Positions 12,088-62,975 of a DNA stretch of 64,000 nucleotides are shown piece by piece. This DNA comes from an uncultured Candidatus Saccharibacteria bacterium (lineage in GTDB: Bacteria > Patescibacteriota > Minisyncoccia > Phycocordibacterales > UBA9973): NCBI GenBank assembly GCA_964646765.1, contig CAZYIA010000003.1, forward strand, positions 2,815 through 66,814. The letters run 5' to 3'. A model generated the notes under the pieces. That model worked only from the letters and a program-made list of their open reading frames with translations, had not been told where the DNA came from and ran no database searches. Within the stretch, counting starts at the first letter, position 1, and each line of letters begins with the position of its first letter. The position numbers were made by a program, and so were the translations under genes.

Positions 12088-12157
12088 AAAATGAGGCTAT
12101 AGGGATCGGTCACAAATCACTAAGTTTTTACCACGCAACGCGTGTTAAAACAAAGTG

Positions 12158-12250
12158 TTTGCGACCCCGCCTCGCCTGTCACTAGCGCGACATGGCTGCG
12201 GCCTTCGATCCCTGCTCGCATGTGAAGCAGTTCACATGCTTGAGCGGATA
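12158..12250 (-). repeat. tRNA-linked conserved element, copy A (downstream of tRNA-Lys): scaffold block + antisense T-arm segment + AAGCAGT-loop hairpin
   Basis: About 70% identical to copy B (47141..47245, opposite genomic orientation, same orientation relative to its tRNA), including a 16/16 block gcgaccccgcctcgcc (12161-12176). ttcgatccctgct (12204-12216) is the reverse orientation of the tRNA-Lys T-loop/T-stem. The hairpin catgtgaagcagttcacatg lies at 12219-12238. Confidence 0.6.
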
Positions 12251-12272
12251 AAAATCCGCTTCGTGATTTTTG

Positions 12273-12345
12273 TCCGCTCAGCAGGGATCGAACCTGCGAC
12301 CGTCTCCTTAAAAGGGAGCTGCTCTACCAACTGAGCTATGAGCGG
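12273..12345 (-). tRNA. tRNA-Lys (anticodon TTT)
   Basis: Minus-strand cloverleaf CCGCTCA-TA-GCTC-AGTTGGTA-GAGC-A-GCTCC-CTTTTAA-GGAGA-CGGTC-GCAGG-TTCGATC-CCTGC-TGAGCGG-A. Anticodon loop CTTTTAA. CCA is not encoded. Confidence 0.85.
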
Positions 12346-17453: not shown

Positions 17454-17572
17454 TCGAAATCTCGCAAAAAATCAAAAAGCACTATCGGGTGCTTTTTGAT
17501 TTTAGCCTGTAAAAACTGGACGAAATGGCAAAAATACCGTATAGTAGCAACGCTTTTAGCTTAAAAGGCTAT

Positions 17573-17647
17573 GGTCCCGTCGTTCAATGGATAGGACGCA
17601 AGATTGCGGATCTTGCAATGCAGGTTCGATTCCTGCCGGGATCACCA
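17573..17647 (+). tRNA. tRNA-Arg (anticodon GCG as read; CCA encoded)
   Basis: Cloverleaf GGTCCCG-TC-GTTC-AATGGATA-GGAC-G-CAAGA-TTGCGGA-TCTTG-CAAT-GCAGG-TTCGATT-CCTGC-CGGGATC-A-CCA. The anticodon loop TTGCGGA gives GCG. The overlapping track ORF 17525..17935 is spurious over this region. Confidence 0.7.
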
Positions 17648-17653
17648 GAGACA

Positions 17654-17680
17654 AAAAGACTGCCCTGCGGCAGTCTTTTT
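17654..17680 (+). terminator. Rho-independent terminator after tRNA-Arg
   Basis: agactgcc-ctgc-ggcagtct stem followed by ttttt. Confidence 0.7.
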
Positions 17681-17683
17681 ACT

Positions 17684-17935
17684 GTGTGTGATGACTACAG
17701 CTATGTTTCGCGAGCACGCGAAACCGCGAGGGGCGGGCTGCGAAAATTTCGAGCGACTGGCGAGAAATTATTTGTAGCCACACTAACTGATACGGGATCA
17801 CCTGGTCATGAATCAAGTAAATTAGGACCAAAGACAAAAGCAGCCCTGATTAAGTTCCAAAAGGCTCACGGTATTCTTCCAGCGACCGGAAGATTTGGGC
17901 CAAGAACAAGAGCTTACTTCAATCAGCATCCATAG
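17684..17935 (+). CDS. Possible small ORF/gene remnant with a peptidoglycan-binding-domain-like C-terminus (GTG start; no signal peptide)
   Basis: The 3' portion of track ORF 17525..17935 downstream of the tRNA encodes ..LGPKTKAALIKFQKAHGILPATGRFGPRTRAYFN, a PG_binding_1-type motif also present at the C-terminus of CDS 42822..45614. There is no ATG; a GTG lies at about 17684. Confidence 0.25.
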   Translation: MCDDYSYVSRARETARGGLRKFRATGEKLFVATLTDTGSPGHESSKLGPKTKAALIKFQKAHGILPATGRFGPRTRAYFNQHP

Positions 17936-46918: not shown

Positions 46919-47015
46919 ACAGAAATGAAGTCACCATTATAGTCTCTAGTTACAGAAATGCCCAAATTTTTAATAAACATTGAAAAAAGCTTGAAAATAC
47001 TGTAGTGTATGCCGC

Positions 47016-47100
47016 GGAGGCGTGGGTGAGTGGTTTAAACCAACGGTCTTGAAAACCGTCGTGTCGAAAGGCACCGTGAGTTCGAATCTCACCGCCTCCG
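47016..47100 (+). tRNA. tRNA-Ser (anticodon TGA)
   Basis: GGAGGCG-TG-GGT-GAGTGGTTTAA-ACC-A-ACGGT-CTTGAAA-ACCGT-[long variable arm CGTGTCGAAAGGCACC]-GTGAG-TTCGAAT-CTCAC-CGCCTCC-G. CCA is not encoded. Confidence 0.85.
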
Positions 47101-47110
47101 CAAGTACAAA

Positions 47111-47140
47111 AAAGAGCCCGAAAGGGCCTTTTTTGTTTGA
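47111..47140 (+). terminator. Weak rho-independent terminator after tRNA-Ser
   Basis: gccc-gaaa-gggc stem plus ttttttg. Confidence 0.4.
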
Positions 47141-47245
47141 CGCAGGCGAGCACGCAGACTGCTTTACGTGCGGGTGAGATTCGAAAGCCGCAGCGTGTCG
47201 CCTTGGCGACGGCGAGGCGGGGTCGCGAACACTTGGTAGTTTTGG
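47141..47245 (+). repeat. tRNA-linked conserved element, copy B (downstream of tRNA-Ser)
   Basis: About 70% identity to the reverse complement of 12158..12250, including the 16/16 block ggcgaggcggggtcgc (47211-47226). ggtgagattcgaa (47173-47185) is the reverse complement of the tRNA-Ser T-loop/T-stem (ttcgaatctcacc). A hairpin with an aaagcagt loop precedes it. Confidence 0.6.
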
Positions 47246-47364
47246 GAGTGAGACGAGCAAAAATACTTAGTGATTCGTGACCGAATCTCCCGTTCTTAAG
47301 TTTTAGTCGCGGGCGAATCGGCCGTCTCCGCAGAAATAGATAATTCTGATATTATTTTAATTGC

Positions 47365-47781
47365 ATGGAAGGAAAACCTCCTAAAATTGGAAAGCCAAAC
47401 ATCGAAGTCTTAGAACAGGGTAATGACATATCTTTCACTGCTCGACAACAAGAAAAAATACTCGCATCCTTGCAATGTGAAAAAGATTTGCCGCGCGCAG
47501 CACTCATTGCTCGGACAATTGTTGTTGAAAAAGATTTTACTAAACAGGGAATAGGTAGCAACTTACTTATCGAAGCTATTAACTATGCGAGAAGTCATAA
47601 ACTTTCACTCGAAACTGACTACGGTATTAGTGAAAACGCTGAAAAACTAATCCAGTCTCTTTCTGAGAAAGGATATTCATTTATCAAAAATTCTGGGGCT
47701 ATTGAGCGAGCCGGGACTGAAGGAAAGAGAATTGTTACGCTAGATGGATCTCCTGTCTATATTTTAGAAGATAAAGAGTAG
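47365..47781 (+). CDS. Hypothetical protein (possible small GNAT-like acetyltransferase)
   Basis: 138 aa. VVEKDFTKQGIGSNLLIEAINYARSHK weakly resembles GNAT motif A. Confidence 0.3.
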   Translation: MEGKPPKIGKPNIEVLEQGNDISFTARQQEKILASLQCEKDLPRAALIARTIVVEKDFTKQGIGSNLLIEAINYARSHKLSLETDYGISENAEKLIQSLSEKGYSFIKNSGAIERAGTEGKRIVTLDGSPVYILEDKE

Positions 47782-61729: not shown

Positions 61730-62050
61730 ATGGATAAACTCAAACACATTTTTGCGCATCATAAACGAACACCGAAGTTTTCGAAGCCGTTTGAGCATTC
61801 TCCGGTACGCATTTGGAAAATTTTTCTCATTGCAACAACACTACTCTCGATTGGAGCTGTGATTGCATCTTGGTTTTTCTTCCGGACTCTTACAACCGAT
61901 GCGGTGTTTGATTCAGACGTACAAGGATCTTCGGGTGAACTTATTCAACACAGTAAATTAGAAACAGTGCTTTCCCACTATAAAGATAAGACAGAAAAGT
62001 TTAAACAATACTCAGAAGAGAAACCGGTGATTAAAGATCCGAGTATATAG
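61730..62050 (+). CDS. Small hypothetical membrane protein (pilus-cluster associated)
   Basis: 106 aa, one TM. Immediately follows the PilO-like gene. Confidence 0.4.
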   Translation: MDKLKHIFAHHKRTPKFSKPFEHSPVRIWKIFLIATTLLSIGAVIASWFFFRTLTTDAVFDSDVQGSSGELIQHSKLETVLSHYKDKTEKFKQYSEEKPVIKDPSI

Positions 62051-62123
62051 TATTCGCTTGGCCACGAATAATTTCTCGCCGTCGCTCAAAATTTTCTCGG
62101 CCCCGGCTCACGGTTTTTCACCA

Positions 62124-62732
62124 CTAGGTGGAGGAAATCTGAACAGTGTTTATTTTTGTAAGTACCCGCCTTCGTATCAGGCAGATAACTATTAGCACCG
62201 TATTCGCAGCTGAAATTGCAATAAGGTAACTCAGTGTTAGAAAGTTATATTCTTTTAAGGCAGCAATCGCAAAACAGTTTCCAACAACAAATAAGATGAA
62301 TGTTAAGACCGTCTCACTCCATGGTTCTTGAAATGCTTTTCGGTAGCTTGGTATATACCCCAAGACATCAATAATACAGATCAGAAGAATTGAAAGGAAA
62401 GGATTTTTAAGTTGCCACCAAATTATTATTGCAGAAAGAACAGCTATAAGTATGACTGTATCGCCGAGAGTGATATTTCTTGTGCCATATTTGAAAGACA
62501 AGAGAAAGATAAGGCACATCATTACTGTCCCTATAATTAACTCAAGTCCACCAATTCCGCCTCCACCATATAACAATCCGGCGAGTGCAGTTCCTTGCGT
62601 CAGAATCCATATGAACCAGGTATAAGCGTGCGGTTGAGTCTTTTTTAAGAAGATGTCTCTTATATAGGGGAGAAACGCCGTTGTACCAACAGCGACAGAG
62701 ATGAAGGCGAATATGAGTTTAATAGGCAACAA
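62124..62732 (-). CDS. Hypothetical polytopic membrane protein
   Basis: Six TM helices. TTG start in the track. Confidence 0.45.
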   Translation of the reverse strand: MLPIKLIFAFISVAVGTTAFLPYIRDIFLKKTQPHAYTWFIWILTQGTALAGLLYGGGGIGGLELIIGTVMMCLIFLLSFKYGTRNITLGDTVILIAVLSAIIIWWQLKNPFLSILLICIIDVLGYIPSYRKAFQEPWSETVLTFILFVVGNCFAIAALKEYNFLTLSYLIAISAANTVLIVICLIRRRVLTKINTVQISST

Positions 62733-62838: not shown

Positions 62839-62929
62839 AAGTGGGCATATCTATTGTACTTCAAAAAACAGTTCGGGACTCGCCGACTACATCGGCAGGT
62901 ACTTTTCTCATTTGCTTCTCAAATATAGA

Positions 62930-62975
62930 AAAGTCTTTCAAGTTCCTCACGCGAGCAAAGCAGTTTGCTCGCTCC
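62930..62975 (-). repeat. tRNA-linked element, diverged copy C (downstream of tRNA-Val): antisense T-arm segment + AAGCAGT-loop hairpin
   Basis: ttcaagttcctcac (62937-62950) matches the tRNA-Val T-loop/T-stem (ttcaagtccctcac) 13/14 in inverted orientation. It is followed by the hairpin gcgagcaaagcagtttgctcgc (62951-62972). Confidence 0.5.

Follow-up and report, generated by a model that had tools for sequence, protein, structure and literature searches.

The attP(+) hairpin of CTX phage and the attC site of integrons are single strands whose inverted segments fold into a stem that mimics the target, and they serve XerCD or IntI at one fixed target (dif or attI). Elements of the IS200/IS605 family and their ORF-less derivatives are small and strand-specific; their cleavage site is set by a 4-nt guide adjoining a hairpin, which pairs with a target 5' of the left end, and they leave no target duplication. 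The bridge (seek) RNAs of IS110/IS1111 are encoded beside a recombinase in an element of 1.2-1.5 kb and carry their guides in two internal loops, with a target duplication of 2 nt. In retrons, terminal inverted repeats of the msr-msd RNA form a closing stem, accompanied by a short hairpin and a long variable one. Genomic islands in tRNA and tmRNA genes are kilobases long and, like their integrase-less derivatives, leave direct repeats of the gene 3' end. Group II introns measure 400 nt or more, contain a domain I and find their targets by guide pairing, those of class C inserting behind terminator hairpins; they have been reported absent from Patescibacteria (PMC13011429).

In the present work, we analyze the sequence downstream of tRNA-Ser(tga) in a 64,000-nucleotide stretch of a Saccharibacteria genome (hereafter, the window). 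The original prediction described this sequence as copy B of a repeated element linked to tRNA genes and customised to the T arm of the preceding tRNA, with copies A and C elsewhere in the window. Our analysis indicates that the element is widespread and belongs to an apparently undescribed family, which resembles each of the above systems in part.

Anatomy of copy B and its relatives in the window

Copy B spans approximately 47142-47291, with a modelled core at 47172-47293 (Table 1). The sequence features by which it was first recognized (tRNA, terminator-like hairpin, hairpin with an “aaagcagt” loop, antisense arm, and shared block) are all present. Two of the particulars need revision. The interval originally given, 47016-47245, covers the element in part, but it includes the tRNA and stops inside the long hairpin about 50 nt short, thereby missing cttagtgattcGTGAC, the repeat cgaatctc, and cgaatcggccgtctccgca. 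The loop hairpin is real, but the quoted letters are the reverse complement of the tRNA-sense strand, on which copies A, B, and C all read aaCTGCtt. The trailer between the tRNA and the element is symmetric and therefore has the look of a terminator in either direction.

The stretch ggtgagattcgaa (47173-47185) is antisense at 13/13 positions to ttcgaatctcacc (47081-47093), the T loop and T-stem 3' strand of tRNA-Ser, as had been claimed. This arm (X') is, however, one strand of the element's own closing helix, P1, whose partner had been overlooked: the 8-nt cgaatctc (47282-47289), a repeat of the tRNA T loop and T stem, pairs with the arm and closes the structure. The arm is split in copy B, with X'a as its first half, and the split is plain in copy A (CCGCTCA, then the hairpin, then GAGCAGGGATCGAA) as well as at loci L110, L148, and L203. 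The shared 16-nt block, ggcgaggcggggtcgc (47211-47226), matches 16/16 as stated and has a single further exact occurrence in the window, at 12161-12176 (-) in copy A; the number expected in window shuffles (n = 100) is 0.00. No ORF was found within the 70-200 nt elements, in agreement with the earlier remark that the region has no plausible one, and none is needed. Two read-archive assemblies of this genome stop at an identical position within copy B.

Table 1. Features of copy B and of other copies in the window
Feature	Position	Strand	Basis
tRNA-Ser(tga), target gene 5' of copy B	47016..47101	+	ARAGORN; Rfam RF00005, 61.3 bits
D_L: tRNA-Ser from T-loop C56 through its 3' terminus; the sequence that recurs	47083-47101	+	
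Trailer: A-tract, hairpin gagccc-gaaa-gggcc, T-tract	47108..47134	+	sequence; terminator scan lists minus strand
gcaggcga (X'a), weak antisense copy of the acceptor 3' strand	47142..47149	+	by-eye comparison with reverse complement of tRNA 3' end
Accessory hairpin gcacgcaga-CTGC-tttacgtgc, CUGC tetraloop 47159-47162	47150..47171	+	sequence
Left arm X'b, gggtgagattcgaa(a), 5' strand of closing helix P1, then ~3 unpaired A	47172..47186	+	complementarity, folds
P2: GCC[GCAG]C - hairpin - G[CGA]GGC	47187..47218	+	alignments A1, A2; pair counts
GGG linker and P3 (GUCGC + 3 bp, variable long hairpin, bulged A, 3 bp, GUGAC)	47219..47281	+	alignments, pair counts
cttagtgattcGTGAC, 3' strand of the long hairpin; also recurs in copy A	47266-47281	+	sequence
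Invariant bulged A of P3	47273	+	alignment A1
GUGAC, end of the element proper	47277-47281	+	alignments
D_R cgaatctc(cc), direct repeat of tRNA-Ser from C56 on; 3' strand of P1	47282..47291	+	sequence, folds
Second tandem copy, relic: degenerate P3 3' strand cttaagttttagtcgcggg, then cgaatcggccgtctccgca	47292..47332	+	by-eye comparison with 47083-47101 and 47266-47281
cgaatcggccgtctccgca, fuller repeat of the tRNA-Ser 3' end	47314-47332	+	by-eye comparison
Copy A, after tRNA-Lys(ttt) 12272-12345(-)	12097..12217	-	covariance model 70.1 bits; sequence; fold
Divergent member after tRNA-Arg(gcg)	17679..17790	+	covariance model 30.7 bits, E = 5e-8
Copy without recognisable left arm or P2, mainly P3 left; 3' end of membrane-protein ORF	62049..62154	-	covariance model 15.8 bits, E = 0.005; sequence, ORFs
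Copy C, after tRNA-Val(tac); CUGC hairpin and 13/14 antisense arm intact, core degenerate	62860..62974	-	sequence

Four of the five tRNAs in the window carry a copy. The covariance model scores copy A at 70 bits and copy B at 67 bits (E about 1e-20), and its search of the window missed copy C. The member behind tRNA-Arg(gcg) shows a double compensatory change at the base of its P3 (GCUGC/GUAGC). GC skew is mostly positive in the window, with a rising cumulative curve, and as the elements occur on both strands, their orientation seems to follow the gene and not replication; there was no sign of a replication-strand (lagging-strand) rule in the window, where skew is weak evidence.

A three-way junction with RNA-type covariation

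The tRNA-sense strand of copy B folds into a three-way junction of P1, P2, and P3 (-67.6 kcal/mol, z = -4.3; copy A, z = -6.7). P1 joins the left arm, antisense to the gene 3' end, to D_R, placed directly after GTGAC. P2 has a conserved outer 3 bp and a conserved internal loop GSAG/CGA, whose strands, as read from alignment A1, would be expected to form G.A/A.G pairs and not AGC triad pairing. P3 is paired in 93-95%; the pairs adjoining its base may be AU, GC, or CG, a single G.U pair is invariant (93/94 paired), and the pair next to it is G.U in 45 cases, G-C in 36, and A-U in 7. Eight nucleotides before the junction, P3 has a bulged A that is invariant in 49/49 sequences of alignment A1. An invariant G follows the junction, and 61/82 copies have three unpaired nucleotides after the left arm.

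RNA-type covariation is strong across the family. Paired cells make up 84% family-wide, against 63% after shuffling; the score for covariation is 0.50, versus 0.17 in shuffles and 0.08-0.12 with the partners slid; the earlier proposal that stems change while pairing is kept is thus borne out. In divergent copies, P2 changes in a compensatory manner from GCC/GGC to GGC/GCC, GAC/GUU, or GUC/GAC, and such changes reach even the near-invariant P2a and P3a stems. Because the copies were collected by the exact 16-mer, the conservation of that block is partly inflated, a bias that spares only the 22 divergent copies. It is the sense strand that folds, as the G.U pairs would become mismatches on the other, and its fold is ~12 kcal/mol better than that of the antisense strand. 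A tRNA or tmRNA on the opposite strand was also considered and rejected: ARAGORN finds none, the fold is worse, and the G.U pairs turn into mismatches.

The CUGC hairpin is an optional accessory, and the conserved part is the P2/P3 junction. The hairpin had been put forward as a selected structure; its pairing is indeed kept, but only 35/97 family members have the CTGC loop (the runner-up loop occurs 6 times), at a constant ~24 nt from the core, and a minimal copy of ~70 nt does without it. Typical copies measure 110-200 nt, with a core of 52-126 nt, and the distance from the tRNA end to the 16-mer is 30-240 nt.

These data also bear on whether the likeness between copies is a chance product of GC-rich, low-complexity sequence, as might be argued from the fact that the bare 16-mer occurs by chance in many high-GC genomes. 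The absence of expected occurrences in window shuffles, the covariance E-values of about 1e-20, and the architecture, context, and covariation common to 102 matches refute this explanation, to which we assign practically no probability; the similarity is far beyond chance.

Distribution and targets of the family

Further copies, which had been looked for beyond the window, are plentiful: the covariance model gave 102 matches at E<=0.001 among 100 sequences of related DNA, mostly from Patescibacteria and metagenome contigs and including one Elusimicrobium genome. The weakest few of these matches look like chance. Members occur in Saccharibacteria, Paceibacteria, Kaiserbacteria, and Elusimicrobium, a patchy distribution over two distant phyla. 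A same-strand tRNA ends <=260 nt upstream in 55/102 matches, and an opposite-strand tRNA was found in 3/102.

The tRNA targets comprise 31 isoacceptors. A link to tRNAs only, as originally envisaged, does not hold, since the same core follows tmRNA, 5S rRNA, rpsI, and rplL, with an arm complementary to each 3' end. The customisation itself was confirmed and extended, since in all target classes X' complements the local gene. Copies lie just downstream of, and co-oriented with, highly conserved, highly expressed genes. At several loci (L158, L128, L223, L195, L110, L121), near-identical cores carry different arms at different tRNAs; such identity could stem from gene conversion among copies instead of recent jumps.

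Signs of insertion

D_R begins exactly after the invariant GUGAC. One junction is therefore precise, and the other is variable: the repeats are 6 to 57 nt long, often ending at the gene 3' end (19/19 in L184), and the joint is preceded by T, G, or C, with no conservation at that base. Tandem arrays occur at L043, L125, L186, L148, L206, L227, and L243, among others. There are also truncated and degenerate copies, at least one of which lacks the 5' part, and L243 has P2-deleted units. In a close relative with 84% identity, an identical tRNA-Ser is without the element, the locus is inverted or rearranged with respect to the window, and the trailer is different. No clean filled-versus-empty orthologous pair was found; as this sole empty tRNA-Ser locus is rearranged, the exact insertion boundaries are unreadable.

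Two origins of the arm and repeat were tried and rejected. Self-primed copying of the left arm does not explain D_R, because the repeat in L165 follows the tRNA where the arm differs. Nor is the arm a leftover 5' half of a duplicated tRNA, given that its complementarity includes T-loop bases, trailers, and coding sequence. Sites at which repeat and gene copy differ, and which could show which of the two the arm follows, numbered 3.

Searches for partner proteins and known families

An all-against-all ORF comparison within 4 kb of 88 loci revealed no recurrent ORF family, only syntenic housekeeping groups. No reverse transcriptase gene adjoins the element among the 88 loci, and a TnpA gene was found at no locus. 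Pfam annotation of 30 of the 61 window ORFs identified no recombinase or integrase, all being housekeeping; next to copies A and B lie GNAT, glyoxalase, MFS, DsbB, and thioredoxin-like ORFs.

With Rfam 15 at gathering score, only tRNA genes were found in the window. Relaxed searches (E<=10 on 47000-47370 and E<=1 on 15 element-bearing loci) placed no family over the core and gave spurious hairpin matches; group II introns (RF00029) had no match at E<=10 on 47000-47370, and neither the retron models nor those of self-cleaving ribozymes (hammerhead, twister, pistol, hatchet, HDV-like) matched. Phage and plasmid collections contained no match, and 2.9 million viral contigs yielded one true copy, at a contig end, with none from a second pattern. 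Searches of the literature for the core sequence or related terms found no description. No sigma-70-like promoter in sense orientation was found near copies A and B, and the strand that folds is the tRNA-sense strand; co-transcription of the element with the tRNA is plausible.

Interpretation

Our leading reading, which we hold with about even confidence, is that copy B would belong to a large family of insertion elements that are small, structured, strand-specific, and protein-less, either non-autonomous or self-acting, and that use a single strand and are guided by base pairing. Both the mobility of the family and its enzyme are inferred. Direct repeats, tandem arrays, truncated copies, and a patchy spread over two phyla favor an insertion element over a dedicated small RNA gene linked to tRNAs. 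The element would move as a single-stranded molecule, with RNA read through from the upstream gene slightly favored over single-stranded DNA as the intermediate. The smallest unit that appears mobile is ~93 bp (L185), which is short for a double-stranded DNA circle and favors a single-stranded intermediate. X' would act as the guide by pairing with the sense strand of the target gene 3' end, and breakage and joining would take place at the P3/P1 junction, between GUGAC and the following N. In the layout D_L ... X'-core-D_R, the insert has the gene 3' end on either side, which would keep the gene intact. An element with a folded stem that mimics the target site would leave such a layout, as with the CTX-phage attP hairpin and integron attC. 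The catalyst would be an unlinked, trans-encoded enzyme or the conserved core itself. Counting against this reading, the terminator-like hairpin between tRNA-Ser and copy B would limit read-through. The mobile-element reading gives no account of how arm and repeat come to match each new target. In a bolder version, which we regard as unlikely, the three-way junction would act as a mobile ribozyme of minimal size, or else supply the RNA half of a new ribonucleoprotein, with an exchangeable guide of ~6-20 nt permitting programmable insertion of ~70-130 nt behind chosen gene ends without gene disruption. Such an element, with little or no protein of its own, would have colonised the genes for tRNA, tmRNA, rRNA, and ribosomal proteins in Patescibacteria and other bacteria.

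The high occupancy of tRNAs in the window, together with structure kept at similar loci in diverged genomes, could point to a host function. A host-serving, cis-acting RNA module at the 3' ends of highly expressed genes, involved in 3'-end formation, processing, termination, or stabilisation and spread by local duplication only, would have the arm pair with the 3' end of the upstream RNA, or the repeat hold the arm inactive. In keeping with this, the folded strand is the gene sense strand, copies are always co-oriented and just behind the gene, compensatory changes maintain the structure at similar loci such as rpsI in L164 and L221, and the GC content of 0.54-0.57 in a 43% GC genome is as in other structured RNAs. 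However, the relative with an identical tRNA-Ser does without the element, as do many tRNAs on element-bearing contigs; orthologous tRNA-Lys loci differ in junction class (window and L104 versus L159); and tandem, truncated, and decayed copies, a family that spans two distant phyla, and the lack of a known processing role for pairing with a folded tRNA T arm also speak against such a module, which we consider rather unlikely. Alternatively, a retron- or DGR-like RNA could serve a reverse transcriptase encoded elsewhere as template or primer; target-primed reverse transcription would then spread its copies and leave repeats of variable length. Its closing stem would stand for a1/a2, its short hairpin for msr, and its long hairpin for msd, with the conserved G or the bulged A as the 2'-OH priming site. 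The match of these three parts, including the variable length of the long hairpin, the invariance of the G after the junction and of the bulged A 8 nt from the 3' end, the pairing of one precise with one variable junction and repeats of 6-57 nt, and the loss of the 5' part or of P2 in some units all fit this scheme, and Patescibacteria are rich in DGR reverse transcriptases. Still, none of the 88 loci has an adjacent reverse transcriptase, the Rfam retron and group II models do not match, retron stems do not derive from neighboring genes, and renewal of the antisense arm at each target is left unexplained; we judge this origin quite unlikely.

The third possibility is a classical miniature integrative element or scar, with the repeats as attL/attR of a tyrosine integrase supplied in trans by a prophage or island and the core as the protein-binding region of attP. 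The direct repeats of the gene 3' end do begin in the T loop or at the acceptor end, which Williams is said to have named in 2002 as sublocations used by integrases; tmRNA is among the targets, the repeats often stop where gene conservation stops, and copies occur in tandem. Set against these points are the lack of an integrase near the 88 loci or among the 30/61 scanned window ORFs and the near absence of copies from viral, phage, and plasmid collections. Moreover, 31 isoacceptors plus rpsI, rplL, and 5S are too many targets for protein-only recognition, the RNA-type covariation and G.U bias on one strand are out of place, ~93 bp units are very small for a double-stranded circle, and classical att sites have no antisense arm. 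We find this explanation improbable.

If the insertion reading is true, the family would be a new class of very small structured element in which the target is specified by a copy-specific short arm on a constant scaffold. It would also be a candidate, open to testing, for a minimal module of programmable insertion or recombination. It would bear on the GC-rich “intergenic” blocks and partial tRNA copies behind many Patescibacteria tRNA genes; assembly breaks inside copy B may reflect repeats of this kind, and inverted copies of tRNA ends could drive local inversions. Even if it serves the host, a conserved RNA fold that is absent from Rfam and follows the 3' end of some of the most conserved genes of two phyla would deserve its own family.

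Comparison with known systems

In layout, the element resembles CTX attP and attC: one end carries a direct copy and the other an inverted-plus-direct pair (D_L ... X'-loop-D_R). Also common to both are a folding single strand with a target-mimicking stem, strand specificity, bulged bases, and wobble pairs. The element differs in having dozens of targets, a conserved three-way-junction core, no linked recombinase, and an orientation set by the gene and not by replication. It shares with IS200/IS605 its small size, strand-specific, single-stranded logic, subterminal hairpins with an extrahelical base, and a short hairpin-adjoining guide. Its putative guide, however, is 6 to >20 nt long with the paired target 3' of the joint, the gene end is repeated over 6-57 nt, and there is neither a fixed left-flank motif nor a TnpA gene at any locus.

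Islands in tRNA/tmRNA genes have the same gene 3'-end repeats, T-loop and 3'-end sublocations, restoration of the gene, and tandem accretion, whereas the element is 100-200 nt long, lacks an integrase, has an antisense arm and a covarying, RNA-like core, and also targets protein genes and 5S rRNA. Group II introns resemble it in guide-target pairing, in insertion behind terminator hairpins, and in a terminal hairpin whose bulged A lies 7-8 nt ahead of a 3' end in AY; at 70-130 nt, the element has no domain I, 5' GUGYG, intron-encoded protein, or RF00029 match, and in most copies the flanking gene is uninterrupted. The retron msr-msd has a similar closing stem, short and long hairpins, and conserved G by the stem, in contrast to which the element has no adjacent reverse transcriptase or Rfam match, copies its stem from the neighboring gene, and is present in many copies per genome. 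A variable-length target duplication with one precise and one variable junction is also seen in SINE-like retroelements. As in IS110/IS1111, a non-coding RNA matching both target strands would provide programmable specificity, but the element has no recombinase, a different fold, and a target duplication of 6-57 nt versus 2 nt. If our reading is true, the element, itself without a linked protein gene, would have an RNA-guided logic in common with CRISPR RNAs, TnpB/IscB guide RNAs, and IS110 bridge RNAs.

Copy B and its surroundings

We re-analyzed copy B, the element behind tRNA-Ser(tga), together with copy A (behind tRNA-Lys(ttt)) and copy C (behind tRNA-Val(tac)). The element is a protein-less structured unit, a three-way junction of P1, P2 and P3 with P2/P3 as core, in which a left strand antisense to the 3' end of the upstream gene (the arm) precedes the core and a direct repeat of that gene end follows GUGAC. 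The original prediction of copy B holds, but its end at 47245 was set too early, as both the 3' strand of the long hairpin and the direct repeat lie beyond it. The proposed antisense match to the T loop and T stem holds in full, and the block common to copies A and B exceeds chance, its 16-mer occurring twice in the window versus 0.00 expected. Copy C retains the CUGC hairpin and an arm with 13/14 antisense matches, but its core is degenerate.

Features of copy B, matches of the covariance model R1 in the window, and targets other than intact tRNA genes
Feature	Position or locus	Remarks
tRNA-Ser(tga)	47016-47101	upstream gene of copy B
Symmetric A-tract/hairpin/T-tract	47108-47134	tRNA orientation, 3' of tRNA-Ser
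Weak antisense copy of acceptor 3' strand	47142-47149	tRNA orientation
CUGC-tetraloop hairpin	47150-47171	tRNA orientation
Arm gggtgagattcgaa	47172-47185	47173-47185 antisense, 13/13 nt, to T loop and T-stem 3' strand at 47081-47093
Block GCCGCAGC...GGCGAGGCGGGGTCGC, copy B		16-mer within, 47211-47226
Long-hairpin 3' strand cttagtgattcGTGAC, copy B	ends 47281
Direct repeat cgaatctc	47282-47289	right behind cttagtgattcGTGAC; tRNA-Ser from C56 of T loop onward
Degenerate P3 3' strand and fuller tRNA-end repeat	repeat at 47314-47332	after copy B
Copy A		R1 70 bits
Copy B		R1 67 bits
Divergent copy after tRNA-Arg(gcg)	17679-17790	R1 30.7 bits, E = 5e-8
Relic	62049-62154(-)	found by R1
rpsI stop codon	L164, L172, L221	element behind
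rplL stop codon	L169, L196	element behind; two tandem copies in L196
tmRNA	L184	element behind
Split 5S rRNA copy beside intact one	L239
Split or decayed tRNA copies	L153, L176	in L176 followed by intact tRNA-Lys

The junction of copy B is closed by the arm pairing with the cgaatctc repeat, with a predicted fold of -67.6 kcal/mol (z = -4.3). Copy A is organized in the same way (-72.3 kcal/mol, z = -6.7), and for both copies alike the opposite strand folds about 12 kcal/mol worse. As a degenerate P3 strand and a fuller tRNA-end repeat lie behind copy B, its 8-nt repeat is probably what a deletion inside a tandem pair has left. Two independent read-archive assemblies of the same genome (L246 and L247) both end at one base inside copy B, their position 1 being window 47196, at gccgcagcgt; this common end may reflect a repeat or population variant there. 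The hairpins between tRNA and element, at 12242-12261 (+) for copy A and 47115-47128 (-) for copy B, score as intrinsic terminators only on the strand antisense to the tRNA. Read in the sense direction, the copy A hairpin has no U tract, so that transcription of tRNA-Lys is expected to run on into the element.

The source names of homologues of the neighbouring MFS gene place the window organism in the Patescibacteria. A relative with an 84% identical MFS protein carries the identical tRNA-Ser without the element. Because this tRNA-Ser lies inverted with respect to the MFS gene and its trailer differs, the exact insertion boundaries are not readable from the comparison. In this relative (L245 1-200 versus window 46919-47140), tRNA-Ser is inverted together with its promoter and the terminator differs, a fragment of which (aactagag) is kept in the window beside the MFS start; the inversion could have been brought about by the inverted tRNA-end copies that the element contains.

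Conserved structure

The consensus begins with the left arm, usually followed by three unpaired nucleotides (61/82 copies) that read AAR where the arm ends in the T loop. P2 then reads G-N-C [G-S-A-G] C-C, a variable hairpin, and G-G [C-G-A] G-N'-C, with a GGG linker next; P3 consists of GUCGC with 3 bp, then a variable hairpin, and on the 3' side an invariant bulged A followed by 3 bp and GUGAC, after which comes the repeat. On alignment A2, 84% of the cells are paired versus 63% in shuffles. The covariation score of 0.50, versus 0.17 in shuffles and 0.08-0.12 with partners slid by 1-3 columns, bears out the earlier remark that stems differ while pairing is kept. At the P3 base pairs, AU, GC and CG all occur and unpaired cells are almost absent. 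The P2a and P3a stems are constant apart from compensatory changes in divergent copies, where GCC/GGC becomes GGC/GCC, GAC/GUU or GUC/GAC in P2a, and GUCGC/GUGAC becomes GCUGC/GUAGC or GUCGG/CUGAC in P3a. On this comparative evidence, the core is a selected single-strand structure.

At one P3-base pair, 93 sequences have G.U and a single one has G-C; at the pair beside it, 45 have G.U, 36 G-C and 7 A-U. This wobble bias shows that it is the upstream gene's sense strand that folds. The CUGC hairpin occurs in 35 of 97 copies (the runner-up tetraloop, 6 times), with its loop always ~24 nt from the core; it is optional, because the ~70-nt element of L185 has none.

Family size and spread

An exact-pattern scan of species-representative genomes returned mostly chance matches in high-GC genomes, with true copies in Saccharibacteria, Paceibacteria, Kaiserbacteria and one Elusimicrobium genome. 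A more specific pattern found at least 120 stretches among metagenome contigs. The covariance model R1, built from 49 aligned copies (alignment A1) with the structure written by hand, gave 102 matches at E<=0.001 on 100 related sequences, which makes the family a large one; 22 of the 102 lack the exact 16-mer used for collection, and the weakest, in a few high-GC contigs, are probably chance. Within the window, four of the five tRNA genes have a copy.

Viral contigs yielded one true copy, at a contig end. A 34.7-kb contig listed as viral in IMG/VR (L121 and L142 are the same) carries at least three elements of two core types in tandem behind a decayed tRNA 3' end near its end, and ARAGORN found no intact tRNA on it. 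Another core type (ACCTGTGATAAC...) lies in L201, ~140 nt downstream of a minus-strand tRNA-Ala beginning at 2186, and yet another reads CCGCGAGGGGCGGGC...AAAATTT-hairpin-AAATTAT. Other core types share one plan, with a split antisense arm, a hairpin, a core and a repeat (L201; window 17679-17790; L121 3319-3230(-)), which suggests a superfamily with several cores. One contig with an element copy also holds a LOOT RNA (RF03000, 84.8 bits; L153 9292-9419 (+)), unrelated to the element.

No recurrent protein family was found within 4 kb of 88 loci, and the 30 window ORFs examined are all housekeeping genes. Rfam held no family matching the element, phage and plasmid records gave no match, and we found no paper containing the core sequence. 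Group II introns are absent from Patescibacteria according to an intron survey of the phylum, in which the element is not described either (PMC13011429).

Target genes and direct repeats

A same-strand tRNA ends within 260 nt upstream of 55 of the 102 matches, and an opposite-strand tRNA at 3 of 102; 31 isoacceptors are represented. Two junction classes occur. Class I has an arm ending in ...ATCGAA-R and a repeat that starts at C56 of the T loop. In class II, the antisense match of the arm covers both acceptor end and trailer, the repeat starts at CAC(C)A or GAC, and tRNA end, trailer and arm make up a single long palindrome, perfect over as many as 25 bp, with the CUGC loop at its tip. Targets extend beyond tRNAs: at each non-tRNA and split or decayed tRNA target (table), the arm is complementary to the gene 3' end and the same end is repeated after GUGAC. 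Near-identical cores carry different arms and repeats (L158, Ser; L128, Val; L223, Met; L195, Val; L110, Tyr), and syntenic tRNA-Lys loci differ in junction class. Judged from these sequences, arm and repeat are derived from the target.

The repeat is 6 to 57 nt long with sharp ends. In many copies it stops at, or a few nucleotides from, the gene 3' end (L130, L151, L158, L165, L195, L218; in L184, a 19/19 match up to the tmRNA end); in others it continues into a trailer and terminator that are homologous but have diverged (L139, L145, L149, L222), and in still others into a second full copy. Loci with tandem arrays include L043 (191-nt unit), L125, L186, L148, L206 and L227. Downstream of tRNA-Lys(ctt) in L243 stand four tandem copies of a 51-nt derivative without P2 (4-nt repeat, short arm, GGCGGGGTCGC-P3-GTGAC), which is amplified in place. 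We rejected the arm as template of the repeat in favour of the gene, since the L165 repeat agrees with the tRNA where the arm differs.

Two side observations concern tRNA-Arg genes. In a Saccharibacteria genome (L113 4302-4390 (+)), the element after tRNA-Arg(tct) is cut off right behind GGGGTCGC by the start of tRNA-Val(tac); the same pair is adjacent in the window, in reversed order, with degenerate copy C in between. A mechanical 136-aa ORF (window 17525-17935 (+)) spans tRNA-Arg(gcg) (17573-17647) and the divergent element; its peptidoglycan-binding domain match is limited to the last ~40 residues, and it appears to be what is left of a gene's 3' part, tRNA and element having taken the place of the front.

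Proposed mode of insertion and known systems

An insertion element, rather than a fixed gene, is indicated by the multiplicity of copies, their tandem arrays and truncations, their patchy distribution across two phyla and the differing tRNA-Lys junction classes. Resident gene end, arm, core and repeat (D_L ... X'-core-D_R) would be the trace of a folded single-stranded element, in which a stem of arm paired with gene end imitated the target. One precise and one variable junction also fit target-primed reverse transcription. The small unit of L185, ~93 bp, speaks against a double-stranded DNA circle. GC skew is mostly positive in the window, with a rising cumulative curve, and copies lie on both strands; element orientation appears to track the gene. 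This orientation, together with co-orientation with strongly transcribed genes, slightly favours an RNA stage. That the repeat often ends at the gene 3' end would be explained by limited homology between imported and resident gene ends, or by a role for a processed RNA 3' end.

By our own analogy, the element would follow the logic of a stem that mimics its target, known from the CTX-phage attP hairpin and integron attC. It shares pairing by a guide, sites close to terminators and a bulged A near an AY 3' end with group II class C introns, a single-strand hairpin and guide with IS200/IS605, segments matching both target strands with IS110 bridge RNAs, its overall fold with retrons, and repeats with tRNA-targeting islands. 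As it falls short on one or more defining tests for each of these five systems, we place it outside the known kinds, and from sequence we infer both its mobility and its mechanism.
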